Shown here in pieces: positions 2,777 to 38,789 of a stretch of DNA of 38,789 bases. The position numbers and the translations under genes were made by a program. This DNA comes from an uncultured Alcaligenaceae bacterium (GTDB lineage: Bacteria > Pseudomonadota > Gammaproteobacteria > Burkholderiales > JACQAP01), in assembly GCA_964396485.1 (NCBI GenBank), contig CAYNFN010000467.1:1-38789 (forward strand), given 5' to 3'. The first letter of the stretch is position 1. Each line of letters opens with the position of its first letter. Under the pieces are notes generated by a model that ran no database searches, had not been told where the DNA came from, and worked only from the letters and a program-made list of their open reading frames with translations.

Positions 2777-2790
2777 TGGTTTCAGCAGTA

Positions 2791-4059: not shown

Positions 4060-4062
4060 ACT

Positions 4063-4239
4063 ATGATCCAATTTAGGTATTTCATCATCTCCAACAGCAC
4101 GTTCAGCTGGTGGTGCGCGTGGCTCAGCCCTTCGCCCGCAAAGAATATTATTTGTCCTGGTGCAGTGTCGCTCAAGGGCGAACGGCCTTGGAGCTCGCCG
4201 AATGTGATTCCTCACGGGTGGATTCAGATAGCTTCGTGA
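4063..4239 (+). pseudogene. C-terminal remnant of a GT11 alpha-1,2-fucosyltransferase gene
   Basis: This 58-codon ORF is below the track cutoff: MIQFRYFIISNSTFSWWCAWLSPSPAKNIICPGAVSLKGERPWSSPNVIPHGWIQIAS*. The FIISNSTFSWW.AWL string is the hallmark C-terminal motif of GT11 enzymes. It parallels HFITANSSFSWWGAWLAQSPGKIVITPH in the intact paralog at 5660-6559. The roughly 230 N-terminal residues are missing. Confidence 0.6.
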
Positions 4240-4248
4240 TTTTGTCGG

Positions 4249-7575: not shown

Positions 7576-7578
7576 TCC

Positions 7579-9464: not shown

Positions 9465-11336
9465 ATGTGCGGCATCATAGGCACCACATCTAGTCGCGCG
9501 GTTGCGGATCGCGAGTGGCTACGCGCCGGCCGCGATCGCTTGCGCCACCGCGGCCCCGACGATGGCGGTGAGTGGTGGTCGACTGACGGGCGGGTCGGCC
9601 TGGGCCACCGGCGGCTGGCCATCATCGATCTTTCTGCGGCCGGACATCAGCCAATGCAGGACGTCAACGACGAGCTGTGCATTGTCTTCAACGGCGAGAT
9701 CTACAACTTTGCCGAGCTGCGCCAGGAGTTGGTGGCGAAGGGGCATGCCTTCCGCTCCCGTAGCGATACGGAGGTGATTCTGGTTGCGTATCGTGAGTGG
9801 GGCACAGACTGCCTCTCGCGCCTGAATGGCATGTTCGCCTTTGCGCTTTACGACGGACGGCAGAGGCGACTTTTCATGGCGCGGGATCGGGTCGGGGAAA
9901 AGCCTCTGTTCTATGCGCTGGCCAATGGCACGCTGCGGTTTGCATCCGAACTCAAGGCACTAATGGCGGATCCGACGATGCCCCGGCGTATCGACCTAGA
10001 GGCGCTGGACTGCTACTTGGCAATGGGCTTCGTGCCGGGTGAGCGCTGCATGTTGCAGGGGGTGAAGAAACTACCGCCAGCCCATGCGCTGGTGTTCAAT
10101 CTGGAAAACGGACAATCGCGGCTGTGGCGCTACTGGCAGTTACCGGAGCTCGATGCCTCGGCAGCAGCCGGGCTGACGGATGAAGTCGAGCTGCAGGATG
10201 AACTGGAAGCCTTGCTGGAAGATGCAGTGCGTCGCCAGTTGGTGGCCGATGTGCCGGTGGGGGTGTTGCTCAGCGGCGGAGTGGATTCCAGTCTGGTGAC
10301 GGCCATGGCGGTACGGGCGACACCCAGGGTCAAGACCTTCACCATCCGCTTCCCTCGATATGGCCAATACGACGAAACCGAACATGCCCGGCTGATCGCG
10401 CGGCATTTTGGCACCGAGCATGTGGAGCTCGAGGCTGCTGAATCTACCGTGGATCTGCTGCCGGTGCTGGCTCGCCAATTCGATGAGCCGGTGGTGGATT
10501 CGTCCATGATCCCTACCTACCTCGTCAGTCGATTGATTCGTGATCACTGCACGGTGGCCCTTGGTGGTGATGGGGGAGATGAACTGTTCGGCGGGTATGG
10601 TCATTACAATCGCTTGCTCTGGATGCAACAGAAGCTGGGCTGGATTCCACGAAGCCTGCGCTGGTCCGTGGCCAAAGCAGGAGAAGCTCTGCTACCCGTC
10701 GGTTTCAAGGGCCGCAACTGGTTGCAAGGGCTAGAGGTTGACTTGCAAGCAGGCTTGCCGCTGATCGCCTCTTATTTCGACCGCACCATACGGCATAGAC
10801 TGATGACAGCACAGGGCACCTGGGCATTGGCTGCCGAACGCATCCGGGAACAACGCGTCCCCCGGGTGGCGGACCTGTTGCAACGAGCAACCCGTATGGA
10901 TTTCGAGAACTATCTGGCCGAAGACATCCTTGTCAAGGTGGACCGCGCCAGCATGCTCAACTCGCTGGAGGTGCGCGCCCCACTGCTGGACTACCGCCTG
11001 ATCGAGTTCGCATTCGGCAAGGTGCCGTCGCACCTGAAGGCTACGGCCACCAGCCGCAAGGTGCTGCTCAAGAAACTGACTACCCGCCTGTTACCGCGGG
11101 AGTTTGACCAGCATCGAAAGCAAGGATTCTCGATTCCGCTGGCTTCGTGGCTTCAATCGGGGTCCTGGCAAAGCTTCTTTCGAGAGGTGCTGTTGGGATC
11201 GGACAATGCCCTCTTTAGCAAAAAAGTGATGAGCAAATTGCTGGATGGGCAGGCTAAAGGTCGAGCCAATAGCGAGCGCTTGTTTGCACTGATGATGTTC
11301 GAGTTGTGGCGGCGGGAATATCAGGTATCCATTTGA
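9465..11336 (+). CDS. asparagine synthase (glutamine-hydrolysing) family amidotransferase
   Basis: 623 aa. It starts MCGIIG, giving the catalytic Cys2 of the class II glutaminase domain. It has HRGPDD, FNGEIYNF and the PP-loop LLSGGVDSS. Its position inside a polysaccharide locus suggests a sugar-carboxamide-forming paralog (WbpS-like role, inference) rather than housekeeping AsnB. Confidence 0.85.
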   Translation: MCGIIGTTSSRAVADREWLRAGRDRLRHRGPDDGGEWWSTDGRVGLGHRRLAIIDLSAAGHQPMQDVNDELCIVFNGEIYNFAELRQELVAKGHAFRSRSDTEVILVAYREWGTDCLSRLNGMFAFALYDGRQRRLFMARDRVGEKPLFYALANGTLRFASELKALMADPTMPRRIDLEALDCYLAMGFVPGERCMLQGVKKLPPAHALVFNLENGQSRLWRYWQLPELDASAAAGLTDEVELQDELEALLEDAVRRQLVADVPVGVLLSGGVDSSLVTAMAVRATPRVKTFTIRFPRYGQYDETEHARLIARHFGTEHVELEAAESTVDLLPVLARQFDEPVVDSSMIPTYLVSRLIRDHCTVALGGDGGDELFGGYGHYNRLLWMQQKLGWIPRSLRWSVAKAGEALLPVGFKGRNWLQGLEVDLQAGLPLIASYFDRTIRHRLMTAQGTWALAAERIREQRVPRVADLLQRATRMDFENYLAEDILVKVDRASMLNSLEVRAPLLDYRLIEFAFGKVPSHLKATATSRKVLLKKLTTRLLPREFDQHRKQGFSIPLASWLQSGSWQSFFREVLLGSDNALFSKKVMSKLLDGQAKGRANSERLFALMMFELWRREYQVSI

Positions 11337-12344: not shown

Positions 12345-13497
12345 CGCATCCAATATACGGCTTGGAGGCGGCGTCACCCATCTGACCGAACTGCTACGGG
12401 TAGCCGATCCACTTGCATGTGGGTTTACGCAAGTCATCGTCTGGAGTGGGCAGGCGACCTTAAATCGGATCGCAAACCGTCCGTGGCTTCTGAAGTCCCA
12501 CCAATCGTTACTAGACAGGAGCTTGCCTTATCGCGCCGTCTGGCAACGTTTCAGGCTTTCCAGGCTGGCCCGGATGGCCAGGTGCGATGTGCTTTTTGTG
12601 CCCGGTGGTTCGTACGCAGGTGACTTTCACCCGATGGTGACCATGAGCCAAACCATGCTGCCGTTCGAGTGGCGGGAGTTGCGGCGGTACGGATGGTCCA
12701 TGACAACCCTCAGATTGATTCTGTTACGGAGGATGCAGTCGCGCAGCTTCCGGCGGTCGGATGGGCTTATTTTTCTGACGCAGTATGCTCGCGATAGAGT
12801 GATACAAGCCATCAAAGCTACTGCTGCTCGAACGACGAATATTCCCCACGGCATCGATGACCGATTTGCCAGTCCGCCACGCGAGCAACGGGCCATAAGC
12901 CAATTTTCGCTGGATCGGCCATTTCGCATCCTGTATGTCTCGATCATTGATGTGTACAAGCATCAGTGGCATGTTGCAGAGGCAATGGCTAAGTTAAGGG
13001 AAAGCGGTTTGCCCGTGGTACTGACTTTAGTGGGTCCAGCGTATCCGCCCGCCTTGAAGAGATTGAAGGCTGCGCTGGAACGGTTGGATCCTGAGGGCAC
13101 GTTCATTCGGTACTTGGGGCCGATTTATCATAGCGACTTCCCCAAGCACTACGGTGAGGCGGATGCGTGCCTCTATGCGTCGAGCTGCGAGAACATGCCA
13201 AATATTCTCCTGGAAGGAATGGCATCCGGGCTGCCAATCGCTTGTTCCAATCGCGGTCCGATGCCTGAGGTGCTGGGCGATGCTGGCGTGTATTTCGATC
13301 CAGAAAACCCGGATGACATTGCCCGTGCGCTTCGCGAACTGATCGACTCGCCTGAGTTGCGGGCCGGATTGGCGAAAGCTTCCTTTGAGCGTGCACATAG
13401 TTATTCTTGGCAGCACTGCGCCCGTGAGACATTCACGTTCCTGGCGGAGGTTTCCCGTGCGCACGGCGGTAAACCTGCAATGCCGTTTCATCCCTGA
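12328..13497 (+). CDS. family 4 glycosyltransferase (GT-B, EX7E)
   Basis: The N-terminus is MRLGIDASNIRLGGGVTHL. The C-terminal CENMPNILLEGMASGLPIACSNRGPMPEVLGDAGVYFDPENPDDIARAL carries the EX7E motif of retaining GT4 enzymes. Confidence 0.8.
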   Translation: MRLGIDASNIRLGGGVTHLTELLRVADPLACGFTQVIVWSGQATLNRIANRPWLLKSHQSLLDRSLPYRAVWQRFRLSRLARMARCDVLFVPGGSYAGDFHPMVTMSQTMLPFEWRELRRYGWSMTTLRLILLRRMQSRSFRRSDGLIFLTQYARDRVIQAIKATAARTTNIPHGIDDRFASPPREQRAISQFSLDRPFRILYVSIIDVYKHQWHVAEAMAKLRESGLPVVLTLVGPAYPPALKRLKAALERLDPEGTFIRYLGPIYHSDFPKHYGEADACLYASSCENMPNILLEGMASGLPIACSNRGPMPEVLGDAGVYFDPENPDDIARALRELIDSPELRAGLAKASFERAHSYSWQHCARETFTFLAEVSRAHGGKPAMPFHP

Positions 13498-13498
13498 C

Positions 13499-15427
13499 AT
13501 GTGCGGTATAGCCGGCTGTTACGGCTCATTCGCCCCTGAACGGCTTGCTCAGGCGAGCCGCCTACAAGCCCATCGTGGCCCGGATGCCGATGGAATCTGG
13601 TTCGATAGTGGAACCGGAATCGGCCTTGCCCACCGCCGTTTATCGATCCTTGACCTCTCCTCGGCGGGGGCCCAACCCATGGTCAGTGACGATGGCTCCG
13701 TGGTGTTGGTGTTCAACGGCGAAATTTACAACTTTCGGGAACTGCGGGCGGAATTGGAGGCGGGCGGTCACGGTTTCCGTGGGCATTCCGATACCGAGGT
13801 GTTGCTGCATCTCTATCTCGCTCACGGCGAACAGATGCTGGGACGGCTCAATGGCATCTTCGCCTTCGCTCTCTGGGACAAGCGCAACCAATCGCTGTTA
13901 GTGGCGCGCGACGCGTTTGGTGTAAAGCCGCTTTACTACGCCGACACTGCGGCCGGATTTACCTTCGCCAGCGAGATCAAGGCGCTGTTGTATCTTGTGC
14001 CAGAGGTGCGAGAACTCGATATTCCAGCGCTTCACCGTTATCTGAGTTTTCTCTGCTGCCCTGGCGAGGGTACGCCGCTGAGGGGCGTGCGCAAACTTTT
14101 GCCGGGCGAGGCGATGGTGGTGCGGGCGGGGAGGATTGCCCGGCGCTGGAGTTGGTATCAGTTGCCGGTATTTCGCGGGGTTACCGGGGATCTTTCCGAA
14201 GCGGACTCGCTAACTGGCACGGTTGAGGGGTTGCGACGTGCGGTGCATCGCCAACTGGTCGCAGATGTTCCAGTGGGAGCTTTCCTGTCTGGTGGACTGG
14301 ATTCGAGTGCGGTCGTCGCCTTCGCGCGCGAGCAGGTGCCGGATATCCGCTGCTTCACTATCGAATCGGCCGGCGGTCAGGAGGCCGGCACCACGGATGA
14401 TCTTCCCTATGCCCGCCGCGTGGCGCGGCACCTCGATGTGCCGCTGGACGTGGTGCGGATTGATGCCGGCCGCATGGCGGACGATGTGGAGCGCATGGTC
14501 GTGCAACTGGACGAACCGCTCGCAGACCCGGCGCCACTCAACGTGCTGTACATCAGTCGCTTGGCGCGCGAGCACGGGGTCAAGGTTCTGCTCTCCGGCG
14601 CTGGCGGGGATGATCTCTTTACGGGCTATCGGCGACACGTGGCGGTGCGGTACGAGCACCTCTGGCGTTGGCTGCCTACGGGAGTGCGTGGCGAGCTGGA
14701 ATGCTGGGCATCTGGGCTTGATCAGCGCAATCCCCTGTTCCGCCGACTGGCGAAGTTGTTTAACGGCGCGGGGCTGGAAGGGGACGCGCGGCTGGCGGCG
14801 TATTTCGCCTGGGCGCGGGAAGCGGATTTGCTGGCACTTTACACGCCGGAGTTTCGCGCCAGCCTTGGGGAGGCCTGTGCCGCCGCGCCCATGCTCGAAT
14901 TTCTGCAGCCGCTGCCCGCATCGGTGCGACCGTTGGACAAGATGCTTGCCCTGGAGCAGCGTTTCTTTCTGGCAGATCACAACCTCACTTATACCGATAA
15001 GATGTCAATGGCGGCGGGGGTGGAGGTACGGGTGCCGTTCCTCGACGCTGATCTGGTGGAGCATGCGGCAAAGATTCCGCTGGGACTGAAGCAACGGGGA
15101 CGTGTGGGGAAATGGGTGCTTAAGAAGGCGATGGAACCTTACTTGCCCAAAGATGTGATCTATCGCCCGAAGTCCGGTTTTGGGGCACCCTTGCGCCGCT
15201 GGATGCAGCATGAACTGCGTCCCTTGCTGGGCGACCTGCTCTCGGTGGATAGTCTCAGGCGGCGCGGCTTGTTTGCGCCGGCCGCGGTGCAGCAACTGAT
15301 TGCACGGAACGATAGCGGCAAGGCGGATGCGGCCTACACTTTATTGTCGTTGTTGAGCATTGAAATCTGGTGCCGCGCATTTCTGGATGGTCGGCCCATT
15401 GGAGCAGAATCACGTGACAACCGATAA
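13499..15427 (+). CDS. asparagine synthase (glutamine-hydrolysing) family amidotransferase (second paralog)
   Basis: ATG 13499 gives MCGIAGCYG (Cys2) two bases after the upstream stop. The track ORF start at 13385 is an upstream extension. It has HRGPDA, FNGEIYNF and the PP-loop FLSGGLDSS. Length is 642 aa. Confidence 0.85.
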   Translation: MCGIAGCYGSFAPERLAQASRLQAHRGPDADGIWFDSGTGIGLAHRRLSILDLSSAGAQPMVSDDGSVVLVFNGEIYNFRELRAELEAGGHGFRGHSDTEVLLHLYLAHGEQMLGRLNGIFAFALWDKRNQSLLVARDAFGVKPLYYADTAAGFTFASEIKALLYLVPEVRELDIPALHRYLSFLCCPGEGTPLRGVRKLLPGEAMVVRAGRIARRWSWYQLPVFRGVTGDLSEADSLTGTVEGLRRAVHRQLVADVPVGAFLSGGLDSSAVVAFAREQVPDIRCFTIESAGGQEAGTTDDLPYARRVARHLDVPLDVVRIDAGRMADDVERMVVQLDEPLADPAPLNVLYISRLAREHGVKVLLSGAGGDDLFTGYRRHVAVRYEHLWRWLPTGVRGELECWASGLDQRNPLFRRLAKLFNGAGLEGDARLAAYFAWAREADLLALYTPEFRASLGEACAAAPMLEFLQPLPASVRPLDKMLALEQRFFLADHNLTYTDKMSMAAGVEVRVPFLDADLVEHAAKIPLGLKQRGRVGKWVLKKAMEPYLPKDVIYRPKSGFGAPLRRWMQHELRPLLGDLLSVDSLRRRGLFAPAAVQQLIARNDSGKADAAYTLLSLLSIEIWCRAFLDGRPIGAESRDNR

Positions 15428-22267: not shown

Positions 22268-22507
22268 GAGCAGGGCCGAGGACTGAGGACTGAGTAAGGG
22301 CGAGTGCCCGGTGCTCAGTGCGCAGTGCGAGAAGAGAAGGGCCGAGGACGGAGGGCCGAGGACTGAGGACTGAGTAAAGGCGAGTGCTGAGTGCGAGAAC
22401 GGCAGGGCCGAGTAAGGGCAAGGACGCAGGACTCAGGGAACGACGAGTGCTGCGTACGGCGGCAGGGCAGGTTAAAGGGCAAAGGTGAAAGGGGAAAGTA
22501 GGGGTGC
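22268..22507. repeat. heptanucleotide-register degenerate tandem repeat block R1
   Basis: Cutting the region into 7-mers gives gggccga ggactga ggactga gtaaggg cgagtgc ccggtgc tcagtgc gcagtgc ... cgaggac ggagggc cgaggac tgaggac ... aggttaa agggcaa aggtgaa aggggaa. One phase is kept over about 240 bp. The + strand is purine-rich. Confidence 0.85.
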
Positions 22508-27227: not shown

Positions 27228-27405
27228 GGCCGAGGACGGAAGACGGAGGACTGAGGACTGAGGGCCGAGAAAAGGCGAGAGGAAAGAGAAAAGAGGAAAG
27301 AGGAAAGTAAGGGCGAGGACTCAGGACTGAGGGCCGAGGACTGAGGACGGAGCGCCGAGGACTGAGGACTGAGTACTGAGTAAGGGCAAGTGCTAGGTGC
27401 GAGTT
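27228..27405. repeat. heptanucleotide-register degenerate tandem repeat block R5
   Basis: It uses the same word set (ggccgaggac, ggactgagg, gagaaaaggcgagaggaaag, aggaaagtaaggg, gactcaggactgagggccgagg) in the same polarity. Confidence 0.8.
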
Positions 27406-28651: not shown

Positions 28652-28982
28652 GGTGACCAGTGACTGGTGACAAGTGACGGGGAAAGGCAAAGATGAAGGC
28701 GGAAGGATGAAGGATGAAGAAAGACAGGGCCGAGGACTGAGAAAAGGCGAGGACTCAGGACTGAGGACGGAGGGCCGAGAAAAGGCGAGAGGAAAGGGGA
28801 AAGTAAGGGCGGTGACCAGTGACTGGTGACGAGTGACCAGTAAAGTTGAGGACTCGGGACGCAGCGAGAAGAGCAGGGCTGAGGTACGAGGGCCGAGGAA
28901 GGGCGAGGACTGAGGACTGAGGACGGAGGGCCGAGGAAGGGCGAGGACTCAGGACCCAGCGAGAAACGAGTGCGCAGTGCGA
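28652..28982. repeat. heptanucleotide-register degenerate tandem repeat block R6
   Basis: ggtgacc agtgact ggtgaca agtgacg ... tgaaggc ggaagga tgaagga tgaagaa ... aggactc aggactg aggacgg agggccg ... tgaccag tgactgg tgacgag tgaccag ... cgaggac tgaggac tgaggac ggagggc. About 330 bp in one phase. Confidence 0.85.
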
Positions 28983-29500: not shown

Positions 29501-30613
29501 ATGTTGTTACCTGGAAGCAAAGAGAATGACACCTGGTCGTTGGGCGCCTTGACCCGACTGGACTCCTATCGATTGGCGCTGACCCCGGCAAAAGAAGGGG
29601 TCGATCCCGCGGCATTTCGCGCGGCGCTGACAGAGGGTGGGCCCGCATTTGTGGATTTACTTCTAACGCAGAATCTCGGGGCGTGGTGGCATCATTGCCT
29701 TCAGGTAAACGGCTTACTTGAGTCGCTGCCACGCGGCGTGGCCGATGCATTGCAGCAGGCACGCATGGCGGCTGCGGCGAGATACCTGGCGCAGCGCACG
29801 GCGCTGATTCACATCGACCAGCTATTCGAAGCAGCGGGCATTTCCTACGCGGTCATGAAAGGCGCGCACGTGCGCGAGTGCGCGTACCCCGACCCTTCTC
29901 TGCGACTGACCGGCGACATCGACGTGTTGGTCACAGCGCCGGACCGGCGGTGCGCGGCGCACGCTCTGCTCGATGCCGGTTACTCGGTGAATGCTGACCT
30001 CGCCATAATCAGCCACGAGGCATGCTTCACGCGCTCGCCGGTGGAGATCGACCTGCACTGGGACATCATGCGGCCGGGCCGGACCCGCGCGGACATGACG
30101 GCGGGCTTGCTCGCGCGGCGACGACGGATCAACGGTTTCTGGGGGTTGTCCGATGCCGACGCTTTGTTCCTGATGCTGACCCATCCGGCATTCGCGAAGT
30201 ACGTATGCTCTCCGAACATGGGGTTGCCGCGCGTCGCGGACTTTCTGCTCCGGATCCAGAACAGGACGATTGATTGGCCCGCCGTCATGCGTTTGCTGGA
30301 AGTGGCAGGGCTGAGAACTGCCGCCTGGACCATGCTTAACTGGTTCCGGATGCTGGCCGCGCCGGCCGCAGGGGCGATTATCGACGGATGGCTGAACAGT
30401 CTGCGCCCGGGCGGCTTAAGGGCGCACTATCTTCGGCGTTGGCTGGATCATGATTTGCCGAGCCGCTGGTTGAACCGCCCGCTATTGATCCAGCTCGGGT
30501 TGACGCTGTTTCTGCACGATCGGTTCTCTGATACGTTGCATGCGGCGCAAGGGTGGCTGCATAGTCGTCGAAATCGCGGGCGTGACCTCCGGTTGTTGTT
30601 GGGTAACGACTGA
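29501..30613 (+). CDS. nucleotidyltransferase family protein (PF14907-like, as found in the HPr-rel-A system and in phosphorylated/glycosylated lasso clusters)
   Basis: 370 aa. ISYAVMKGAHVRECAYPDPSLRLTGDIDVLVTAPD...LLDAGY...VEIDLHWDI matches the pattern (l.lKG..l....Y.dp.lR...DiDlLV ... veLHw) that I associate with the uncharacterised nucleotidyltransferase family. Confidence 0.6.
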   Translation: MLLPGSKENDTWSLGALTRLDSYRLALTPAKEGVDPAAFRAALTEGGPAFVDLLLTQNLGAWWHHCLQVNGLLESLPRGVADALQQARMAAAARYLAQRTALIHIDQLFEAAGISYAVMKGAHVRECAYPDPSLRLTGDIDVLVTAPDRRCAAHALLDAGYSVNADLAIISHEACFTRSPVEIDLHWDIMRPGRTRADMTAGLLARRRRINGFWGLSDADALFLMLTHPAFAKYVCSPNMGLPRVADFLLRIQNRTIDWPAVMRLLEVAGLRTAAWTMLNWFRMLAAPAAGAIIDGWLNSLRPGGLRAHYLRRWLDHDLPSRWLNRPLLIQLGLTLFLHDRFSDTLHAAQGWLHSRRNRGRDLRLLLGND

Positions 30614-30736
30614 CTTTCTACGATGGGTATGAGGAAACCGCGAATTCCCAGCGATGCCGTTGGTGTCGGACGATACGGGAGAGACGCCACGGCGCGTGCG
30701 CCGCGAATTGCGGCCATGAACCTGTCGTGGCGTCTC

Positions 30737-30798
30737 TTCCCTCATCCCCAGCCCTTCTGCTCCGCTTCAAGTGTTCCCTTGTCCCGAGGGGAGAAAGG
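30737..30798 (+). repeat. about 60-bp dispersed repeat, copy B
   Basis: ttccctcatccccagcccttctgctccgcttcaagtgttcccttgtcccgaggggagaaagg, in direct orientation relative to copy A. It lies just upstream of the ABC transporter start and accounts for the spurious N-terminal extension of track ORF 30727. Confidence 0.7.
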
Positions 30799-30831
30799 AG
30801 CGTCGTGCTCCCCGCCCGGGCGGGGAGGTTC

Positions 30832-32511
30832 ATGGGTAGCGGCGTGAAAGGCATGGGTCTGCGAGCAATGCTGGGTTTCGCGCAACCTTATCGGACTTCG
30901 CTCACCGTAAGCGCGCTGCTGATGATCGCCGAGAGCGGCGTGGCGCTGGCGGTGCCGTGGCTCGCCGGCCACTTGGTCGAAAGCATGCTGGCCGCTACTG
31001 CATCCGCGTCCGGGGCCGGGCCGGTGTTGCTCGGGCTGCTTGCCCTGTTTGGTTTGCAGTCGCTGCTCAAGTTCGGCAACAGCTACCTGCTCAGCCATAG
31101 TGCGGAGCACATCCTGGCCGATCTGCGTATCCATCTCTACGATCACTTGCAGGCGCTGCCACTGGCCTTCTATCACCAGCGCCGCCGCGGTGAAATTCTC
31201 GCGCTGCTCACGAACGACGTCGGCCGCCTGAGCGGTTTTATCAGTGGCACCTTGCCGAGTTTGATTCCTCTGCTGCTTACTGTCGCCGGCGCCGTGCTGC
31301 TGATGTTCCGCATCGATGCCCGCTTGGCGCTGTACGTGGCCGCACTGGTGCCGCTGTTCTATCTGTTGCTGAAGATTCTCGGCCGAGGTCTGCGTCCGCT
31401 GGCTGGGCAGTTGCAAGAGGCGCATGCCGGGGCGGTCGCCATCGCCGAGGAAAACCTCGGCATGCTGCCGGCGATCAAGACCTTCACCCGCGAACCGGAG
31501 GAATCAGAACGCTATCGGCGGCAGATTCACCACATCCTGCATCTGAGCGCCGCGGAGCGGCGAATCGTCGCCGCGTTGGGGCCTGCGCTGCAGTTTCTTG
31601 CCGCGGCCGCCATGCTGTTGGTGCTCTGGCTGATGAGCGGGCAGATGATCGATCGTTCGCCGGCGGACATGGTGAGTTTTCTGCTCTATGCCGCGCTGCT
31701 CACCCGGCCTGTCAGCGCGCTGGCCGATGTCTATGGCCAGACCCGCCAGGCGCGCGGCTCACTGGAGCGGCTCAGGCAAGTGCTCACGGAGCGCCCCGAG
31801 CCGCTCCTGCGAATCGGGCACGCATTGCCACCAGTGCGAGGCGAAATTGAGTTTCGCGACATCCACTTCGCTTATCCGGGTCGCCCGCGGGCCCTCCGCG
31901 CGCTCAATCTGTATATTCGCGCCGGCGAGACGATCGCTATCACCGGCGTGAACGGCGCGGGCAAGAGCACCATTGCCCATTTGCTCATGCGCCTGGCGGA
32001 ACCCGATCACGGTCATATCTTCATCGATGGGGTGGACATTGCCGGGGTGACGCTGAACAGCCTGCGCGCTCAGATCGGCCTGGTTCCGCAGCATGTGCTG
32101 CTGTTTCATGGCACGGTGCGCGACAACATCGGCTATGGCCGCCCCGAGGCCGGCGCCGATTCGGTCATCGCGGCCGCCCGTGCCGCCCAGGCGCATGAAT
32201 TCATTTCCGCTCTTCCGCAAGGCTACGACAGCGTGATCGGCGACCAGGGCATTCGATTGTCCGGCGGTCAGCGCCAGCGCATCGCGCTCGCCCGCGCCCT
32301 CATCAAGGATCCGCCGATCCTGATCCTCGACGAGGCCACCGCCATGTTCGATCCGCAAGGCGAGAAATCCTTTGTCGAGGAGTGCCGGCACGGGCTGGCG
32401 CATCGAACCGTTATACTCATTACTCATCGTCCGGCGAGTCTGGCGCTGGCGGATCGAGTGGTACACCTGGAGGCCGGTTGCATTGCGGATTGGCGAAAGC
32501 CGATACCATGA
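30832..32511 (+). CDS. ABC exporter, fused permease/ATPase (type I exporter, McjD/MsbA-like)
   Basis: Six N-terminal TM helices, Walker A GVNGAGKST, signature LSGGQRQRIALARAL, Walker B ILILDEAT and an H-loop ITHR. ATG 30832 follows GGAGG; ATG 30853 is an alternative. The stop overlaps the B2 start (ATGA). Confidence 0.85.
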   Translation: MGSGVKGMGLRAMLGFAQPYRTSLTVSALLMIAESGVALAVPWLAGHLVESMLAATASASGAGPVLLGLLALFGLQSLLKFGNSYLLSHSAEHILADLRIHLYDHLQALPLAFYHQRRRGEILALLTNDVGRLSGFISGTLPSLIPLLLTVAGAVLLMFRIDARLALYVAALVPLFYLLLKILGRGLRPLAGQLQEAHAGAVAIAEENLGMLPAIKTFTREPEESERYRRQIHHILHLSAAERRIVAALGPALQFLAAAAMLLVLWLMSGQMIDRSPADMVSFLLYAALLTRPVSALADVYGQTRQARGSLERLRQVLTERPEPLLRIGHALPPVRGEIEFRDIHFAYPGRPRALRALNLYIRAGETIAITGVNGAGKSTIAHLLMRLAEPDHGHIFIDGVDIAGVTLNSLRAQIGLVPQHVLLFHGTVRDNIGYGRPEAGADSVIAAARAAQAHEFISALPQGYDSVIGDQGIRLSGGQRQRIALARALIKDPPILILDEATAMFDPQGEKSFVEECRHGLAHRTVILITHRPASLALADRVVHLEAGCIADWRKPIP

Positions 32512-32969
32512 CATCCATAACCGGAAAACTGGCGAAGTTCCGCGCGCTTTCAAAGACGCACCGGCGGATCATATTGAACGCGGCGTTCTTGCTGCCGTTG
32601 TTCTGGATCGGTTTGCATTTCATTGGTCTGCGCCGTTTGCAGGCCTGGTTGCAACACACGCCCGCGCGTTCGGACATGCGGCTTTCTCTGGATGATGTCA
32701 TGGCGATAGGCAATCTCGTGAATATCGCCGGCCGCCACGCGCCGTGTCCGATGAACTGCCTCACGCGTTCCCTACTGCTCGACTGGACGCTGCGCCGCCG
32801 CGGTGTGGCGAGCCAGCTGCGCATCGGCGTGCGTCTGTCGCAGGGCGCGCTCGATGCTCATGCCTGGGTCGAAGTTGCCGGCGTTCCCGTTAATGATCGG
32901 TCGGACGTGAGCGAGCAGTTCGCAGCGTTTGCCGAAATTTTGCCTCCCGCGGCCTTCCAGTCGCCGTGA
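32508..32969 (+). CDS. lasso peptide biosynthesis B2 protein (transglutaminase-like leader peptidase)
   Basis: 153 aa. NCLTRSLLLDWTLRRRGVASQLRIGV...LDAHAWVEVAGVPVND is the C..RSL.l...L.r.G....l..GV......HAWVe..G pattern with the Cys/His/Asp triad of McjB-C-terminal/B2 proteins. Confidence 0.8.
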   Translation: MTSITGKLAKFRALSKTHRRIILNAAFLLPLFWIGLHFIGLRRLQAWLQHTPARSDMRLSLDDVMAIGNLVNIAGRHAPCPMNCLTRSLLLDWTLRRRGVASQLRIGVRLSQGALDAHAWVEVAGVPVNDRSDVSEQFAAFAEILPPAAFQSP

Positions 32970-33020: not shown

Positions 33021-33908
33021 GTGCATCGCATGTTGCAGAAGAAAGGGGATGAGTCGTTGAGTGATTCTTCTTTATATGGAATGGCGGGGCAGGCGCTTGG
33101 GCGACCGAACAGGAGCAGTGCCTATCCATGGTATGACTCTGTCTGGCTTGAAGAATATACGAAAGCCAAGGCTATTATTCGCAAAATAAAGCCTGGCGCC
33201 TTGACTACTTTCGAGTCTGCTTTTCAGATTTTTCAAACCCGCAATGATTTTCAGGAAAAAGTTCTTGAGCGCGTGTTTGACGATAACACGCTCGATGAAA
33301 TCAGGCGCGTTGTCAAATCGTTAAGGCCATCGGATGTCGAAATGCACGAGGCACAAAGTTTCAAACGTTTTGTCGTGCATGACAATCCATTTTTTAATGA
33401 GCTGCAAAAGCAAATAACTCCATTGGTAAGCGCAGCAGCGGGTGAGCCGGTGGAAACGTCCTACAACTTCCTCAGCCTCTACAGCGCCATGGGCGTTTGC
33501 CCGGTCCATATGGACTCGCCTACGGCGAAATGGACGCTTGACATTTGTCTCGATCAGAGTGTGGGGTGGCCCATCTATTTCAGCCGACCCCATACCTGGT
33601 CAGAAATAGAAGCGCAAAACTGGTCCGACGAAGACTGGGCGGAGGTTATCAAAAGCTCTCCAACAGCCGACTTCAAGTCGTATATTTTGGAGCCGGGGCA
33701 GGCAATCCTGTTTTCTGGCGCCAGTCAGTGGCATTACCGGGATCCGATGCCCAAATCAGATGGCCGTGCCAGCTGTGATTTACTTTTTTTCCATTTCATT
33801 CCGCAGGGCACTTCCGAGTTGGTGAACCCACGGAACTGGGCGGGTTTGTTCGGAATTCCAGAACTTGCACGAGCTGTGAAAGCGTCTCCGAAGATCCCAC
33901 ATGGATAG
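33021..33908 (+). CDS. hypothetical protein, possible Fe(II)/2-oxoglutarate-dependent oxygenase (cupin fold)
   Basis: 295 aa and visibly more AT-rich than its neighbours. A candidate facial triad comes from CPVHMDSP (H.D) and SQWHYRD (distal His) about 70 residues apart, with beta-strand-like segments between them. There is no stronger motif. The start is uncertain (GTG 33021, ATG 33030 or 33081). Confidence 0.35.
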   Translation: MHRMLQKKGDESLSDSSLYGMAGQALGRPNRSSAYPWYDSVWLEEYTKAKAIIRKIKPGALTTFESAFQIFQTRNDFQEKVLERVFDDNTLDEIRRVVKSLRPSDVEMHEAQSFKRFVVHDNPFFNELQKQITPLVSAAAGEPVETSYNFLSLYSAMGVCPVHMDSPTAKWTLDICLDQSVGWPIYFSRPHTWSEIEAQNWSDEDWAEVIKSSPTADFKSYILEPGQAILFSGASQWHYRDPMPKSDGRASCDLLFFHFIPQGTSELVNPRNWAGLFGIPELARAVKASPKIPHG

Positions 33909-33971: not shown

Positions 33972-35852
33972 ATGAGCGGGATCGCCGGCATCATTCATTG
34001 TGACGGTGTGCCCGTCGAACCGGGGCTGGTCGAGAAAATGACCGCCGCCATGGCCTACCGCGGGCCGGACGGCATCAACCATTGGGTCAAGGGCTCGGTT
34101 GCATTGGGGCAGTGCATGCTGCGCACAACCCCGGAATCGCTCGAAGAAACCCAGCCGCTGACAAACGAAGACCAGAGCCGGGTGCTCGTCATGGATGGGC
34201 GCGTGGACAATTGGGAAGAACTCCGCACGGAGCTGCTCGCCTGCGGCGCGATGCTCAGAAACCGCGCCGATGCCGAACTGGTATTGCGAGCCTACGAGAC
34301 TTGGGGCCGGGACTGCCTCACGCACATCGACGGCGACTTCGCACTGGTGATCTGGGATGTGCGGCGGCAGGAAGCGTTTTGCGCGCGCGACCGCATGGGT
34401 AACAAGCCGTTCCATTATCATTGGAGCGGTAACACGCTGGTCTTTGCCTCAGAACTGCATCCGATTCTCGCGCTGCCGTGGGTGCCGCAAATGCCGAATG
34501 AGGGCATGCTGGCAGAGTTTCTCGCGGCGGAGTGGTATTCGCGCGATGAAACACTTTGGAATGGAATCCTGCGTCTCCTTGCCGCGCACCGCATGACGGT
34601 CGGCCGTCGCGGGCCGCAAACCGATCAATACTGGGGACCGAATCTGTGGGCGGCACCGGCATATACAAGGGACGAAGAATATTTCGAGCATTACCGGGAA
34701 TTGCTAACGGACAGCGTCCGGCGGTTGTCGCGTTCGCACCGCCCGGTCGCCGTCGAGGTCAGCGGCGGTCTCGATTCCTCCGCCGTGTTCTGCCTCGGGG
34801 AGCACCTGCGTCGTGCCGGTCGTTTGCCCGCGCCCGGTATCCGTGGGTACACCATGGCCTTCACGGACGACAGCGCCGCCAATGAAATCGCCTATGCCCG
34901 GGCCGTAGGCGAATATTTGGGTCTGCCGATTGAGGAGATCGCCCCTTCCATCCCACCGCTTTCCTGGTATGAAGAGCGCGCTCACATGTACCGGGAGTTC
35001 CCCGGTTATCCGAACGGGACGATGTATCTTGATGCGATGAGGCATGCTGCATCTCTGGGGTGCCGCACGGTGCTGACCGGCCAAGGGGGCGACGCCTGGG
35101 CGCAAGGTTCACGGGAGTACTATGCCGAGGAGATGGCGCAACGGCATTGGACCGCGCTTCGAGACAGCTTCAGAAATGATTCCGGCGTGTACGGTACCCA
35201 GCAGGCCATGGCATGGTTTGTCCGGTACGGCTTTTATCCCTTGCTTCCAATCGCACTTCAGCATGGATTGCGCCAACTGGTGCGCAGGCTGCGCGGCACG
35301 GCGATTCGCGACACCTATTGGCTTTCGCCGCGGATGCGGCAGGTTATTGCGGCGCGTCGTGAACACCCCCGTCCGTGGATTGGTCAGCGAGTGCGCAGTA
35401 TCAGTCAGCGGGAATTGCTTCAGAAACTGTATGACGCGTTTACCATCCAGGCAATGGAATTCCTGGATCGGGAGGGCGCCCGTGCCGGGTTCGAAATACG
35501 GCATCCGTTCCATGCCACGGCCTTTGTCCAATTCGCGTTCGCGACGCCGGCAAGGCTGCGATTGCGGGGCGATCGCACCAAATACATTCACGTCCAGGCC
35601 ATGCAAGGCCTGATGCCCCCGATCATCCTCGATCGGAAAACCAAGGCGGAATTCTCGGTTGTATTCCATATGCAGATGGTCCGGATGAAATCGCTGCTGA
35701 CCGAATCGATTCCCAGGGAGCGAACCGGCTGGGTAGACCCGGTGGGCACGTCCATGCTCTTCCAAGCGTATGTGAACACCCCGCAGGTGGGTTGGCCATT
35801 ATGGGTTTTGTGGAGTATCTTTGGGTCTGACGCGGTGGTGAAAGGGCTCTGA
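33972..35852 (+). CDS. asparagine-synthetase-like lasso peptide cyclase (C protein)
   Basis: 626 aa with AsnB architecture and the PP-loop VEVSGGLDSS. It begins MSGIAG, so Ser replaces the catalytic Cys2, unlike the two MCGI paralogs at 9465 and 13499. It lies next to B2 and the precursor gene. Confidence 0.8.
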   Translation: MSGIAGIIHCDGVPVEPGLVEKMTAAMAYRGPDGINHWVKGSVALGQCMLRTTPESLEETQPLTNEDQSRVLVMDGRVDNWEELRTELLACGAMLRNRADAELVLRAYETWGRDCLTHIDGDFALVIWDVRRQEAFCARDRMGNKPFHYHWSGNTLVFASELHPILALPWVPQMPNEGMLAEFLAAEWYSRDETLWNGILRLLAAHRMTVGRRGPQTDQYWGPNLWAAPAYTRDEEYFEHYRELLTDSVRRLSRSHRPVAVEVSGGLDSSAVFCLGEHLRRAGRLPAPGIRGYTMAFTDDSAANEIAYARAVGEYLGLPIEEIAPSIPPLSWYEERAHMYREFPGYPNGTMYLDAMRHAASLGCRTVLTGQGGDAWAQGSREYYAEEMAQRHWTALRDSFRNDSGVYGTQQAMAWFVRYGFYPLLPIALQHGLRQLVRRLRGTAIRDTYWLSPRMRQVIAARREHPRPWIGQRVRSISQRELLQKLYDAFTIQAMEFLDREGARAGFEIRHPFHATAFVQFAFATPARLRLRGDRTKYIHVQAMQGLMPPIILDRKTKAEFSVVFHMQMVRMKSLLTESIPRERTGWVDPVGTSMLFQAYVNTPQVGWPLWVLWSIFGSDAVVKGL

Positions 35853-35951: not shown

Positions 35952-36365
35952 ATGACCATGAACGATAAGAAAAACCCTCTCACCGCAAGCAAGAACGCGA
36001 CGGTCAAGACCGCCAAGCCTGATAAAGCCTCCTATTCTGCGCCCCTGCTTCGGGTTTATGGTTCCGTGAGCAAGCTGACTTTGGGTGGTGGTGGTAGTTT
36101 GGGCGATGGCGCACTCATGGATATGTTGCCGAGCGATCGATTGATTAAAGAAAACATCGTCCGAATCGACACCCACCCGTTCGGCATAGGCCTTTACCTG
36201 TTCGACTACAAGCCGGAATACCGGGAACGTTGCGGCACTGGCCGGCAGCTTGGTATCATGGCCGATGAAGTTGAAACGGTTGTACCGGATGCAGTATTCG
36301 TTCACCCAGACGGCTACAAGATGGTCAACTACGCGAAGCTGGGGATCAGTCACGGTATCCAGTAA
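35952..36365 (+). CDS. lasso peptide precursor fused to a C-terminal Peptidase_S74-type intramolecular chaperone (self-cleaving) domain
   Basis: The leader is ...KASYSAPLLRVYGSVSKLTL with Y-17, P-14, L-12, G-8 and T-2. The core is GGGGSLGDGALMDMLP (36084-36131), with Gly1 and Asp8. From 36132 it reads SDRLIKENIVRIDTHPFGIGLYLFDYKPEY...GRQLGIMADEVETVVPDAVFVHPDGYKMVNYAKLG. That matches the S74 pattern SD.r.K.NI ... G.iAqEv..v.P..V ... dGy..vnY..L, including Ser and Lys five residues apart. The start is ATG 35952 or ATG 35958; the latter has better spacing from GGGGA. A 100-bp AT-rich spacer lies upstream. Confidence 0.75.
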   Translation: MTMNDKKNPLTASKNATVKTAKPDKASYSAPLLRVYGSVSKLTLGGGGSLGDGALMDMLPSDRLIKENIVRIDTHPFGIGLYLFDYKPEYRERCGTGRQLGIMADEVETVVPDAVFVHPDGYKMVNYAKLGISHGIQ

Positions 36366-36394: not shown

Positions 36395-37516
36395 ATGCTG
36401 CAGGAGCACCTGGATTATGTCGCTGATCTTGTCAGACTGGAACGATACAGGGCCGCAATAACCAAGGTTGTTGCTCCCGGAAATACCGTAGCAGATTTGG
36501 GGTGCGGCTCGGGGGTGCTGGGGTTGTTGTGCCTGCAGGCCGGCACGGGCCATGTGTATGCTGTCGATGACAGCGCCATGATCGACATTGCCCGGGAGTC
36601 TCTGACGCGAGCCAGTCTGGTTGACCGCGCCACCTTCATCCGTGGCAAATCCAGCCAGATCGAATTGCCCGAGCGGGTAGACGTGGTGATCTGTGATCAT
36701 GTCGGCTACTTCGGTTTTGACTACGGTGTGGTTGAGTTTCTCGGAGACGCCAAACGGCGTTTTCTCAAGCCGGGCGGCACACTGATCCCTTCAAAAATCC
36801 GGCTCAATATTGCCGCTGCCGGTTCACAGAAATGCAGCGCGCTTGCCGATGGCTGGCAAGGCAACAACATCCCTCCCGAGTTTCACTGGCTGCGCAGTTA
36901 TTCGATCAATACCAAGCATGCGGTCGAGTTTGGGCGGGATGACGTTCTTGGTCCGCCTGCTGTACTGGGCGATATCGATCTCTATGCGGATAACCCGGAG
37001 TTTTTTTCCTGGAACGCAGAGTTGCGTATCGAACGCGACGGGGTGATGCACGGCGTGGCCGGTTGGTTCGACTGCGAGCTGGCCGAGAATGTCTGGATGA
37101 CGAATTCGCCGCTGGCGGCAAAACCAATCCGCCGTCCGCAGGCTTTTCTGCCCATCGGTGAGGCCGTGCCGGCAAAGTGCGGAGATGTTGTCACAGTCAC
37201 CATCATGGTGCGTCCGGCCGAGCAGTTAATTGCCTGGACCGTGGAATTCTCAACCACAGGACAGCGCTTCAGCCATTCAACTTGGCAGAGTATATTGTTG
37301 TCGCCGGAAAATCTGATCCGGGCCAACCCCCGCCATATTCCGCAGTTAAGCCGGGAAGGGCGGGCACGCATGACGGTGCTGGGATACTGTGATGGAAAAA
37401 GAACAACGCAGGAAGTCGAACAGGCAGTGCTGCGCGATCATCCGAACTTGTTCCCGACCAGCGGAGAAATTGCACGCTTCGTGGCACGGGTGCTGGGCAG
37501 GGATACCGGAGCGTGA
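36395..37516 (+). CDS. PRMT-fold SAM-dependent methyltransferase with C-terminal PqqD/RRE-like winged-helix extension
   Basis: The sequence reads RYRAAI...VADLGCGSGVLGLLCLQAG..HVYAVDDS...ATFIRGKSSQIELPERVDVVICDHVGYFGFDYGV...FLKPGGTLIP. It then has a beta-barrel-like half, VMHGVAGWFDCEL...GDVVTVTIMVRP. Both parallel PRMT1 block by block. The last 60 aa (ARMTVLGYCDGKRTTQEVEQAVLRDHPNLFPTSGEIARFVARVL) look PqqD-like. Confidence 0.6.
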   Translation: MLQEHLDYVADLVRLERYRAAITKVVAPGNTVADLGCGSGVLGLLCLQAGTGHVYAVDDSAMIDIARESLTRASLVDRATFIRGKSSQIELPERVDVVICDHVGYFGFDYGVVEFLGDAKRRFLKPGGTLIPSKIRLNIAAAGSQKCSALADGWQGNNIPPEFHWLRSYSINTKHAVEFGRDDVLGPPAVLGDIDLYADNPEFFSWNAELRIERDGVMHGVAGWFDCELAENVWMTNSPLAAKPIRRPQAFLPIGEAVPAKCGDVVTVTIMVRPAEQLIAWTVEFSTTGQRFSHSTWQSILLSPENLIRANPRHIPQLSREGRARMTVLGYCDGKRTTQEVEQAVLRDHPNLFPTSGEIARFVARVLGRDTGA

Positions 37517-38376
37517 CGGACTACAGTTTGGCAGAGGCGCGCCCGCAAATACCCCTCGGCAATGCGCTGTTCCACCAATGGATCTTCCCGGACGGTACGA
37601 CCTGGACGCAGTTCTATCGCGCTGAGAGCGGTTATCTGCTGCGTTTCCCCGATCTCGCGGATTTTTTGGTATCACGCGATGGCCGTGCGGTGAGCTGCTG
37701 GCCCGTGCCTGGCGTTTCGGATCAATCGGTGCAACACCTCTATCTGAATCAGGTGTTGCCGCTGGCGCTCAGCAGACAGGGGAAACTGGTTTTTCATGCC
37801 AGCGCCGTGGAGATAGGCGACGCGGCAGTTGCTTTTATGGGCGAGGCCGGCCGAGGCAAGTCCACCCTGGCGGCAAGTTTCGCCACCACCGGATCGCGCT
37901 TTCTCACCGATGACGGACTGGCGGTGGAGACAGTTGCGGGAGATTGGCGTGTTCTGCCAAGTCACCCCTCCATTCGTCTATGGGAAGACAGTCAGGATGC
38001 GCTGGTGCGCACGGGCGTGCGGAAGGCCCCACCGGTCTCGTATACCTCCAAGGCGCGATTCCTGGCGGGTGACGATATTGTTTTCTGCGAAGAACCACGG
38101 CGGCTTCAAGGTGTGTATTTTCTCGGCACGGGTGTGTCGCCGGAACCGATGTTCGAGCGCTTGCAGCCCAGCGACGCCTTGATCGAGCTGGTGAAGCATT
38201 CTTTCCTGCTCGATATAGAGGAGCACGAGCTACTCGCGGCACATTTCGATGAACTGTCCCGCCTGGCGAACCGGCCGATATACTATCGTCTGGATTATCC
38301 ACGGCGTTTCGAAGATCTGGCACAGGTCAGAAGGGCGATCGTGGATCACGTGCATGCAGAGGACACGACGGCATGA
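37513..38376 (+). CDS. HPr kinase/phosphorylase-related kinase (HprK-related kinase A-like; lasso precursor kinase candidate)
   Basis: FHASAVEIGDAAVAFMGEAGRGKSTLAASFATTGSRFLTDDGLAV parallels the HprK C-terminal domain HG..v...G.GvLi.G.SG.GKSe.a..l...Gh.LvaDD. The GTGA overlap with the methyltransferase gene and the ATGA overlap with the PqqD gene indicate one translationally coupled unit. Confidence 0.7.
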   Translation: MTDYSLAEARPQIPLGNALFHQWIFPDGTTWTQFYRAESGYLLRFPDLADFLVSRDGRAVSCWPVPGVSDQSVQHLYLNQVLPLALSRQGKLVFHASAVEIGDAAVAFMGEAGRGKSTLAASFATTGSRFLTDDGLAVETVAGDWRVLPSHPSIRLWEDSQDALVRTGVRKAPPVSYTSKARFLAGDDIVFCEEPRRLQGVYFLGTGVSPEPMFERLQPSDALIELVKHSFLLDIEEHELLAAHFDELSRLANRPIYYRLDYPRRFEDLAQVRRAIVDHVHAEDTTA

Positions 38377-38645
38377 ATCTTTCCGACAAAATAAAAATAC
38401 CGGCGCAGGTGATGGCGCGGCAGGTGGGCGCGGAGACGGTGATTCTGGACTTGGCCACCGGCACATACTTCGGTCTGGATCCGGTCGGCGCGCGCATCTG
38501 GCAACTGATGAGTGAAGGCAAAACGCTTGCGGAAGTCTGCGACGCGATGCAGACGGAATTTGAGGTGTCGCGCGAAGACATCGAGCGCGACGTCATCGAG
38601 TTGACGGAGAAACTGAAAGCGCAGCAGTTAATCAGCGCTGCGTAA
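38373..38645 (+). CDS. PqqD-family RiPP recognition element (lasso B1)
   Basis: 90 aa. VGAETVILDLATGTYFGLDPVGARIWQLMSEGKTLAEVCDAMQTEFEVSREDIERDVIELTEKLKAQQLI is the classic PqqD pattern (e.vll......y.Ln..g..iW.l.....t..ei...l...y.v....e.dv..fl..L...gli). Confidence 0.8.
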   Translation: MNLSDKIKIPAQVMARQVGAETVILDLATGTYFGLDPVGARIWQLMSEGKTLAEVCDAMQTEFEVSREDIERDVIELTEKLKAQQLISAA

Positions 38646-38789
38646 AAGGGAAAAAGGGGAAAGTTAAGGGCGAGGACTCAGGACTGAGGGCCGAGTAAAG
38701 GCGGGGACTGAGGACGGAGGGGCGGGGACTGAGTAAGGGCGAGGACTCAGGACTGAGGGCCGAGGACTGAGTAGAAGCAGTGACTCAGG
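38646..38789. repeat. heptanucleotide-register degenerate tandem repeat block R7 (runs to the window edge)
   Basis: aaagggaaaaaggggaaagttaagggcgaggactcaggactgagggccgagtaaaggcggggactgaggacggagg... uses the same words and the same polarity as R1-R6, and shares aagggcgaggactcaggactgagggccgag with R5. Confidence 0.8.

Follow-up and report, generated by a model that had tools for sequence, protein, structure and literature searches.

In split-B lasso peptide pathways, a PqqD-like protein (B1) binds the YxxPxL leader of the precursor, a peptidase (B2) cuts after the residue that follows Thr-2, and a cyclase (C) adenylates an Asp or Glu side chain and closes the ring about the tail. The described clusters closest to the one reported here, those of the paeninodin, pseudomycoidin, Bradymonas and SyanK types, also encode a kinase and a nucleotidyltransferase. 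Peptidase_S74 domains, or intramolecular chaperone auto-processing (ICA) domains, are known from other proteins. In T5 pb1, Ser1264 and Lys1269 form the catalytic pair, and the catalytic Ser leaves with the chaperone domain, as it does in the K1F endosialidase; the phi29 model, based on weaker density, has the Ser on the mature side (PMC4690869). An Arg of a neighbouring chain, situated in the upstream triple beta-helix, contributes to the oxyanion hole, and cleavage reports the folding of the trimer (PMC4690869). We analyzed a stretch of 38,789 nucleotides from an uncultured Alcaligenaceae bacterium (contig CAYNFN010000467.1, hereafter the window), and found that one small open reading frame (ORF) at 35952-36365 joins a lasso leader and a putative core to a Peptidase_S74 domain.

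We consider this ORF to be a true precursor of a split-B lasso pathway, whose S74 follower cleaves itself off at the bond between Pro60 and Ser61 and thereby frees the C-terminus of the core. We give this reading a probability of roughly 0.65. What the analysis shows directly are the identities of the domains, the conservation pattern across the family, the synteny and that the cluster has no rival precursor. The ORF is organized as follows, with residues numbered throughout from the ATG at 35952 (137 amino acids, aa):

35952..36365, + strand: gene A, the precursor with leader, core and S74 follower (137 aa if started at ATG 35952)
35952..36083, + strand: leader, residues 1-44 (NF033521 match, motif conservation)
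36033-36083, + strand: leader recognition motif YSAPLLRVYGSVSKLTL, residues 28-44, with Y-17, P-14, L-12, G-8 and T-2
36084..36131, + strand: putative 16-residue core GGGGSLGDGALMDMLP, residues 45-60 (hypervariable, Asp/Glu at 7-9)
36132..36362, + strand: follower, a 77-residue Peptidase_S74 / ICA domain, residues 61-137 (PF13884, fold)
36132-36134 and 36147-36149, + strand: putative catalytic dyad Ser61 and Lys66 (S74 alignment, conservation)

The original prediction, made from the letters alone, had described a 137-aa ORF of three parts. Its translation, segments and coordinates hold, and its start needs revision: a ribosome-binding-site-like GGGGA directly abuts ATG 35952 and lies 7 nt ahead of ATG 35958, and the recorded gene call is 135 aa long (P0001), so that the true start is probably ATG 35958, with residue numbers then lower by 2. 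The proposed leader register proved exact. With Gly45 as +1, Y-17, P-14, L-12, G-8, T-2, Gly1 and Asp8 all fall in place without a gap, and the NCBIfam model NF033521 (lasso_leader_L3) matches residues 28-46 with 20.9 bits against a cut-off of 19. The predicted core layout comprises a ring from Gly1 to Asp8 and the tail GALMDMLP. Residues 61-137, which open with SDRLIKENI and contain GIMADEVETVVPDAVF and DGYKMVNYAKLG (translation of 35952-36365), had been assigned to Peptidase_S74, and here too the curated model agreed: Pfam PF13884 scores 25.8 bits on residues 61-115 (E 1.3e-5; gathering score 22), with positions 1-57 of the 58 in the profile aligned. The ORF thus combines the leader pattern, the core start with an Asp/Glu at 7-9 and the adjacent B1, B2 and C genes of a lasso precursor with a core that does not run to the stop codon, being followed by 77 more residues. 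A promoter and terminator scan around the gene gave nothing beyond shuffled expectation.

The same architecture recurs in a large family. Searching proteins with the precursor recovered 535 proteins at E<=1e-3, mostly from Proteobacteria and about 130-140 aa long. The 120 homologues listed of these 535 are mostly 126-152 aa in size, and for most of them PF13884 is precomputed; 119 sequences entered the alignment. A strict pattern of leader plus junction was found in 110 of the 120, all 110 with an Asp/Glu at core position 7-9, so the co-occurrence of leader and junction that had been suggested as a check was indeed observed. Nine of the remaining ten have the leader motif and only minor junction deviations, while the tenth, P0056 (94 aa), starts inside the core. 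The homologues are publicly named “tail fiber domain-containing protein” (e.g., in Mesorhizobium), “Peptidase S74 domain-containing protein”, “Chaperone of endosialidase” or “hypothetical protein”, and none of the 120 listed carries a lasso-precursor name. A profile search against 1.84 billion representatives at 50% identity detected 84 clusters with E values under 1e-30. Full-length matches (120-165 aa) made up about 100 of the 150 listed, and the weaker ones were phage-type proteins aligning over the C-terminal S74 part only. At 90% identity, the family comprises more than 500 clusters. A tblastn search of a plasmid collection with the precursor returned no match.

Leader, core and follower occur together across hundreds of homologues, and the three parts evolve very differently. 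In the 119-sequence alignment, P31, G37, T43 and K66 are invariant, together with nine follower residues, and Y28, D52, S61 and D62 are conserved in at least 90%; the leader motif is therefore kept in the homologues, as had been expected of a functional leader. Mean column entropy is 3.05 bits for residues 1-27, 1.52 bits for the leader motif (28-44), 2.54 bits for the core (45-60) and 0.85 bits for the follower (61-133). D52 is an outlier within the variable core, with an entropy of 0.4 bits. Among the 110 homologues of the strict pattern, 107 cores are distinct, with lengths of 14-20 residues. Their first position is occupied by Gly (76), Ser (15), Ala (8), Asn (7), Thr (3) or Pro (1). The acidic residue stands at position 8 in 106 of the 110, and positions 1-6 contain an Asp or Glu in only two cores. 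At the junction, 108 of the 110 have a Ser as the nucleophile and two (P0057 and P0070) have a Cys, which also occurs in the locus L006; the follower measures 77 residues in nearly all. A conserved leader, a hypervariable core with a fixed acid and a conserved follower form the pattern of a RiPP (a peptide made by the ribosome and modified after translation) precursor.

In the window, the precursor is flanked by a split-B lasso set and tailoring genes, in the order N-D-B2-x-C-A-M-K-B1 and all on the + strand:

29501..30613, + strand: N, NTP_transf_5 nucleotidyltransferase (PF14907, 136 bits)
30727..32511, + strand: D, ATP-binding cassette (ABC) exporter without a peptidase domain (ABC_membrane and ABC_tran matches)
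32382..32969, + strand: B2, transglutaminase-like leader peptidase (NF033537, 76.9 bits against 33; PF13471)
33021..33908, + strand: accessory ORF of 295 aa between B2 and C (no family match)
33972..35852, + strand: C, lasso cyclase, an asparagine-synthetase homologue (Asn_synthase and GATase domains)
36395..37516, + strand: M, S-adenosylmethionine-dependent methyltransferase with a PRMT-like C-terminal subdomain (Methyltransf_25, PrmA, PRMT_C)
37513..38376, + strand: K, HprK-related kinase (weak, sub-cut-off matches to Hpr_kinase_C and TIGR04352)
38373..38645, + strand: B1, PqqD-like leader-binding protein or RiPP recognition element (RRE) (PF05402, 74.1 bits)

This neighborhood is conserved. 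Scanning one genome per GTDB species gave 48 loci, distributed over alpha-, beta- and gamma-Proteobacteria and two contigs binned as Chloroflexi, and synteny was assessed by tblastn of the window's cluster proteins against 51 loci. In 49 of the 51, the precursor has a cyclase homologue upstream, typically at about 2 kb and on the same strand, which bears out the proposal that the ORF is the lasso precursor beside the B2 and C genes. The two exceptions have explanations: L046 is truncated by the contig end, its precursor being placed at base 14, and L051 is a phage-type protein without a leader. B2, PqqD/B1 and the HprK-like kinase usually accompany the cyclase in the related loci. The search detected a homologue of the kinase in 43 of the 51, and the kinase-negative loci other than L051 are short contigs or end soon past the precursor or methyltransferase. 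The methyltransferase is present in most loci and missing in several where the kinase directly follows the precursor, among them L007, L024, L028 and L045. In Mesorhizobium onobrychidis and an NCBI metagenome-assembled genome (MAG), the precursor likewise lies between cyclase and methyltransferase, with B2 upstream and the kinase and PqqD gene downstream. The two Chloroflexi-binned contigs, L017 and L019 (Anaerolineaceae and Caldilineaceae), would extend the family past Proteobacteria if the binning is correct.

We also searched the cluster for another substrate of the B1, B2 and C enzymes. A six-frame scan for [YFW]xxPx[LVIFMA]xxx[GA]xxxxxTx yielded only this ORF in the cluster, in line with the original prediction; a relaxed leader pattern gave a single match at 18288, outside the cluster.

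Several loci encode more than one precursor. Tandem fused copies with differing cores occur in L017 (four copies, 1341-4700), L026 (three, 4699-8490), L023 (two, 5986-6616) and L032 (two, 7620-8064), and such tandem copies with different cores are a trait often seen among RiPP precursors. In L023, L024, L025, L026 and L040, the core tail contains a pair of Cys residues. These cores have a Glu at position 8 or 9 and a longer tail, such as GGSKGSAENAFLCSLGIFIRTRKPC followed by SER, and their junctions mostly read SER instead of SDR, which is kept in L023 and L024. Their sequences suggest lassos stabilized by a disulfide within the tail. Two loci contain short precursors that have no follower. 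In L038, the short precursor ends with GSGGTMVDGNMVNKR at its stop codon, and the adjoining fused copy reads GRAGSGTDFSMMTRRG followed by SDRR; in L024, the short precursor ends with RQRTC, and the adjoining fused copy reads IKACA followed by SDRN. Both short precursors terminate right ahead of the position of the follower Ser, and their last residue is not Ser. This points to a cut on the N-terminal side of the Ser and to a product that does not require the follower. A further homologue, P0155 (746 aa), unites in one frame a full leader-core-S74 unit and a homologue of the lasso cyclase that has 26% identity with C of the window; this may be a natural C-A fusion or a read-through of the assembly or gene call.

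The follower itself resembles S74 domains in predicted structure as well as in sequence. An AlphaFold2 model built with the family alignment has a predicted local distance difference test (pLDDT) score of about 90 for residues 61-133 and below 50 for residues 1-21 and 46-55, so the leader and core are predicted to be disordered and joined to a folded domain. Foldseek against BFVD gave 31 matches at E<1e-3 (best E 7.6e-9), most of them named as ICA/S74 or tail and neck-appendage proteins and several without a name; the tightest superpositions had a root-mean-square deviation of 1.7-2.9 A over 74-82 columns. The fold thus supports the assignment made from PF13884. Among PDB sequences, the family profile detected 6f45 (phage S16 gp37, E 3.4e-4) and 7dc3 (the MYRF ICA, E 1.8e-3), both alignments starting at the SDR..K motif, while a single-sequence search of the PDB was marginal (E 0.11). 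Judged as an S74 protein, the precursor has the PF13884 score, the S-x4-K dyad at the start of the domain and the ICA fold; what departs from that class is the upstream part, whose 60 residues consist of a leader and a Gly-rich core in place of a trimeric beta-helical passenger.

The nearest S74 domains beyond the lasso family were noted in L051, P0194, P0219 and P0228. Such domains form the ends of Q/N/G-rich phage-type proteins. In L051, this is a 364-aa protein at 7125-8219 with a C-terminal S74 domain, and the leader and lasso genes are absent. Domains of the same type also occur twice inside very large proteins (~1300 aa), one of them with a lytic-transglycosylase-like sequence. It is plausible that proteins of the type of L051, P0194, P0219 and P0228 were the donors of the follower domain.

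We infer the following maturation route, with its ring formation and threading, trimerization, self-cleavage at a particular bond, sequence of events and sites of tailoring. The PqqD-like B1 would bind the leader and B2 would cut after Thr-2/Leu-1, and the cyclase would link the Gly1 amine to the Asp8 side chain, forming an 8-residue ring around the tail of a Gly/Ser/Thr-rich core of about 16 residues. The 77-residue follower, presumably recruited from phage tail-fiber or tail-spike proteins, would trimerize, and Ser61 and Lys66 would cut the Pro60-Ser61 bond; trimerization and autoproteolysis at the Ser are proposed from the conservation of the dyad and by analogy with T5 pb1, the K1F endosialidase and MYRF. 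Ser61 would depart as part of the follower, leaving the C-terminus of the core free, and the cut would release either the 60-residue leader-core or, if cyclization comes first, the finished 16-residue lasso. That the junction residue is catalytic and that the cut falls on its N-terminal side is argued by the exchanges of Cys for Ser, by the invariant Lys66 and by the short precursors. The kinase would most likely phosphorylate a Ser/Thr of the ring, the methyltransferase and nucleotidyltransferase would tailor the peptide further, and the ABC transporter would export it.

Several observations weigh against this route. The window's cyclase scores 366.8 bits with NF033535, under the exception-level cut-off of 525. 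A Foldseek search of the PDB gave a weak top match (7dc3, the MYRF ICA; E 0.05, template modelling score 0.28), which is probably explained by the use of a monomer model for an intertwined trimer. Upstream of the domain there is no triple beta-helix and no obvious trigger, only a Gly-rich variable core, and the domain may therefore behave differently here. Finally, the characterized HprK kinases of lasso clusters mostly target a C-terminal Ser, and a Ser sits at the junction. This last point leads to a different cut, after Ser61 (between Ser61 and Asp62), giving a 17-residue core that ends in a Ser to be (poly)phosphorylated by the HprK-like kinase, its phosphate then decorated by the NTP_transf_5 enzyme, as in paeninodin and pseudomycoidin. 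The cluster has homologues of both K and N, the kinase recurs in 43 of the 51 loci, the junction Ser is near-invariant, and elsewhere PadeK, ThcoK, SyanK and PsmK act on a C-terminal Ser, to whose phosphate PsmN adds a hexose (PMC8498205, PMC9266682). We nevertheless regard this cut as quite improbable, as the Ser goes with the chaperone domain in T5 pb1 and K1F (PMC4690869), the short precursors of L038 and L024 end without a Ser, and three homologues have a Cys at the junction. Moreover, BsfK phosphorylates Ser3 of the ring, so that a C-terminal Ser is not required for such a kinase (PMC10368454). Since all 118 cores analyzed carry a Ser/Thr at ring positions 1-7 (at position 5 in 64%), a phosphosite in the ring, as BsfK has it, is the simpler reading. 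General chemistry also speaks against a cut after Ser61, as the attack of a Ser hydroxyl on its own C-side carbonyl is expected to be unfavorable. Cys, for its part, can serve as a nucleophile but is no substrate of a Ser kinase.

The missing triple beta-helix, which triggers cleavage in phages, also bears on whether the follower leaves at all. It might stay on, giving a lasso-capped protein and possibly a three-headed trimer, or the S74 domain might be a solubility, scaffold or trimerization module trimmed by an unrelated protease. The mean entropy of the follower, 0.85 bits, reflects a conservation well beyond what a disposable peptide would require, and engineered lasso peptides accept C-terminal protein fusions. 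A non-catalytic scaffold would not be expected to keep the Ser(Cys)/Lys dyad together with the Asp next to it, as the family does, follower-less short precursors adjoin fused copies in the same clusters, and the cluster has an ABC exporter of the small-peptide type, and we therefore think retention or trimming by another protease unlikely. A more speculative proposal, which we put forward tentatively and with considerable doubt, is that the follower acts as a phage-derived folding checkpoint that trimerizes, holds the tail during ring closure by B1, B2 and C, and cuts only after the lasso is correctly threaded, or else stays attached as a trimeric lasso-capped protein. Were the checkpoint real, the lasso fold would replace the triple beta-helix as the trigger, and the release of the peptide would report that its topology is correct. 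The names of the homologues (tail fiber, Peptidase S74, Chaperone of endosialidase) and the phage-type proteins L051, P0194 and P0219, which end in related S74 domains, could instead suggest that the ORF is a prophage tail-fiber remnant lying in the lasso cluster by chance, the real precursor being an unannotated small ORF. The place next to the cyclase is kept in 49 of the 51 loci over alpha-, beta- and gamma-Proteobacteria, the N-terminal half exceeds the NCBIfam cut-off for a lasso leader and its motif has invariant residues, the six-frame scan offers no other candidate in the cluster, and we found no phage genes near the precursor in the window. Synteny and leader conservation effectively refute a chance remnant, which we hold to be extremely improbable, and self-cleavage between Pro60 and Ser61 is the reading that we retain.

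Some of the flanking genes merit further comment. L001-L005 and further loci likewise have a member of the NTP_transf_5 family next to the cluster. The first 130 nt of the B2 ORF (195 aa, starting with GTG) are shared with the end of the exporter ORF. B2 homologues have 148 aa, and the exporter ORF has 594 aa compared with 548 aa in a homologue; the real starts of both genes are probably downstream of the listed ones. B1 scores under the exception cut-offs of the lasso PqqD models NF033536 and NF033530. The 295-aa ORF at 33021-33908 had no match in Pfam, NCBIfam or the PDB. Homologues of it lie within or close to clusters of this type: one in L004 (79%) and others, encoded on the opposite strand (44-51%), in L037, L039, L044, L046, L047 and L049, several of which are sphingomonad MAGs. 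The ORF is probably an uncharacterized tailoring enzyme. We considered an iron/2-oxoglutarate oxygenase for this ORF from an H-x-D...H pattern seen by eye, and dropped the assignment as unsupported. Likewise, the idea that the C-terminal 80-90 residues of the methyltransferase form a PqqD-like RRE was rejected, as BLASTP against B1 and a permissive Pfam scan were both negative.

The lasso cluster adjoins a large polysaccharide-synthesis locus (678-28644 of the window) with many glycosyltransferases and methyltransferases, as well as two more Asn-synthase-type amidotransferases (9465-11336 and 13385-15427), a UDP-N-acetylglucosamine 2-epimerase, a heparinase II/III-like protein and a WecA-like glycosyltransferase of family GT4. 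Sugar-nucleotide and glycosyltransferase genes also flank homologous clusters in Mesorhizobium and a MAG; the stretches concerned in the related loci are L001 1-4900 and L002 5000-6450 and 13300-20400. This proximity may be due to chance, or may be linked to tailoring by the kinase and nucleotidyltransferase. In addition, degenerate intergenic heptamer repeats (GAGGACT, GAGGGCC and GAGGACG types, with periods of 7, 14, 21 and 38) were observed at 22338-22368, 27278-27380, 28874-28955 and 38665-38789. Two of these arrays bracket the lasso cluster, one just before its first gene (29501) and the other right after the PqqD gene (38645). The arrays may belong to a repeat spread over the genome or may delimit a mobile block.

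The architecture is widespread and the mechanism plausible. If the mechanism is true, this would be the first RiPP precursor known to us with its own self-excising, protein-sized follower, and a new case of a phage tail-fiber auto-processing domain recruited by a cellular pathway, comparable to MYRF in eukaryotes. The family is hidden in databases under tail-fiber, S74 or hypothetical names. Mining rules based on precursor or core length would probably miss it, and many proteobacterial lasso clusters may consequently look as if they had no precursor. Peptide production could also benefit from a minimal self-cleaving tag of 77 residues, since a short peptide would be released from it with its native C-terminus.

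The original prediction knew of no lasso or other RiPP precursor of this kind. A partial check of the literature, with subscription literature outside it, agrees, as no published lasso precursor with an S74, ICA or tail-fiber domain or an autoproteolytic follower was found in the full texts; neither a review on interlocked peptides from 2026 nor one on RiPP proteases from 2023 mentions a self-cleaving follower, an S74 domain or a tail-fiber domain.

Compared with the split-B lasso clusters that encode a kinase and a nucleotidyltransferase (paeninodin pade, pseudomycoidin psm, Bradymonas bsf and the SyanK type), the window has the same separate B1 (PqqD) and B2, the Asn-synthetase-like cyclase, the ABC exporter, the HprK-like kinase and the NTP_transf_5-type enzyme. 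The precursors, too, have in common the YxxPxLxxxGxxxxxTx leader and the ring-closing Asp/Glu at 7-9. In the described types, the precursor is short and its last residues are those of the core, whereas that of the window adds a folded S74 domain of 77 residues; clusters like that of the window usually have a PRMT-like methyltransferase, and no C-terminal Ser is expected in their product if the cut falls between residues 60 and 61. The order N-D-B2-x-C-A-M-K-B1 also departs from the A-B1-B2-C-K-D described for proteobacterial kinase lasso clusters (PMC5067487). SyanA of Sphingobium yanoikuyae, considered as a possible truncated member of the family, was treated as a different type, its cluster having that described order (PMC5067487).

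With the S74 domains of the K1F endosialidase, T5 pb1, S16 gp37 and the MYRF ICA, the follower shares the S-D-x-R-x-K-x-N-I opening, the five-residue spacing from Ser to Lys, the predicted fold and the C-terminal placement. Phage S74 domains and the MYRF ICA follow a long trimeric beta-helical passenger, whose folding triggers cleavage through the Arg of a neighboring chain, whereas the S74 domain of the window is a minimal 77 residues behind a disordered leader and core of 60 residues.

The lasso C-terminal fusions of the Link laboratory, in which a folded protein was attached to the tail of the core, reportedly remained substrates of the B and C enzymes. Such constructs are artificial and lack self-removal, while the fusion in the window is natural, conserved and probably self-excising. 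Other RiPP non-core segments (the bottromycin follower, NHLP/Nif11 leaders and borosins) are similar in that they must be removed or are protein-sized. The large domains of NHLP/Nif11 precursors and borosins serve as leader or enzyme and are not self-excising. In bottromycin, a separate amidohydrolase takes off the follower (PMC10885120), whereas the S74 follower described here would remove itself.

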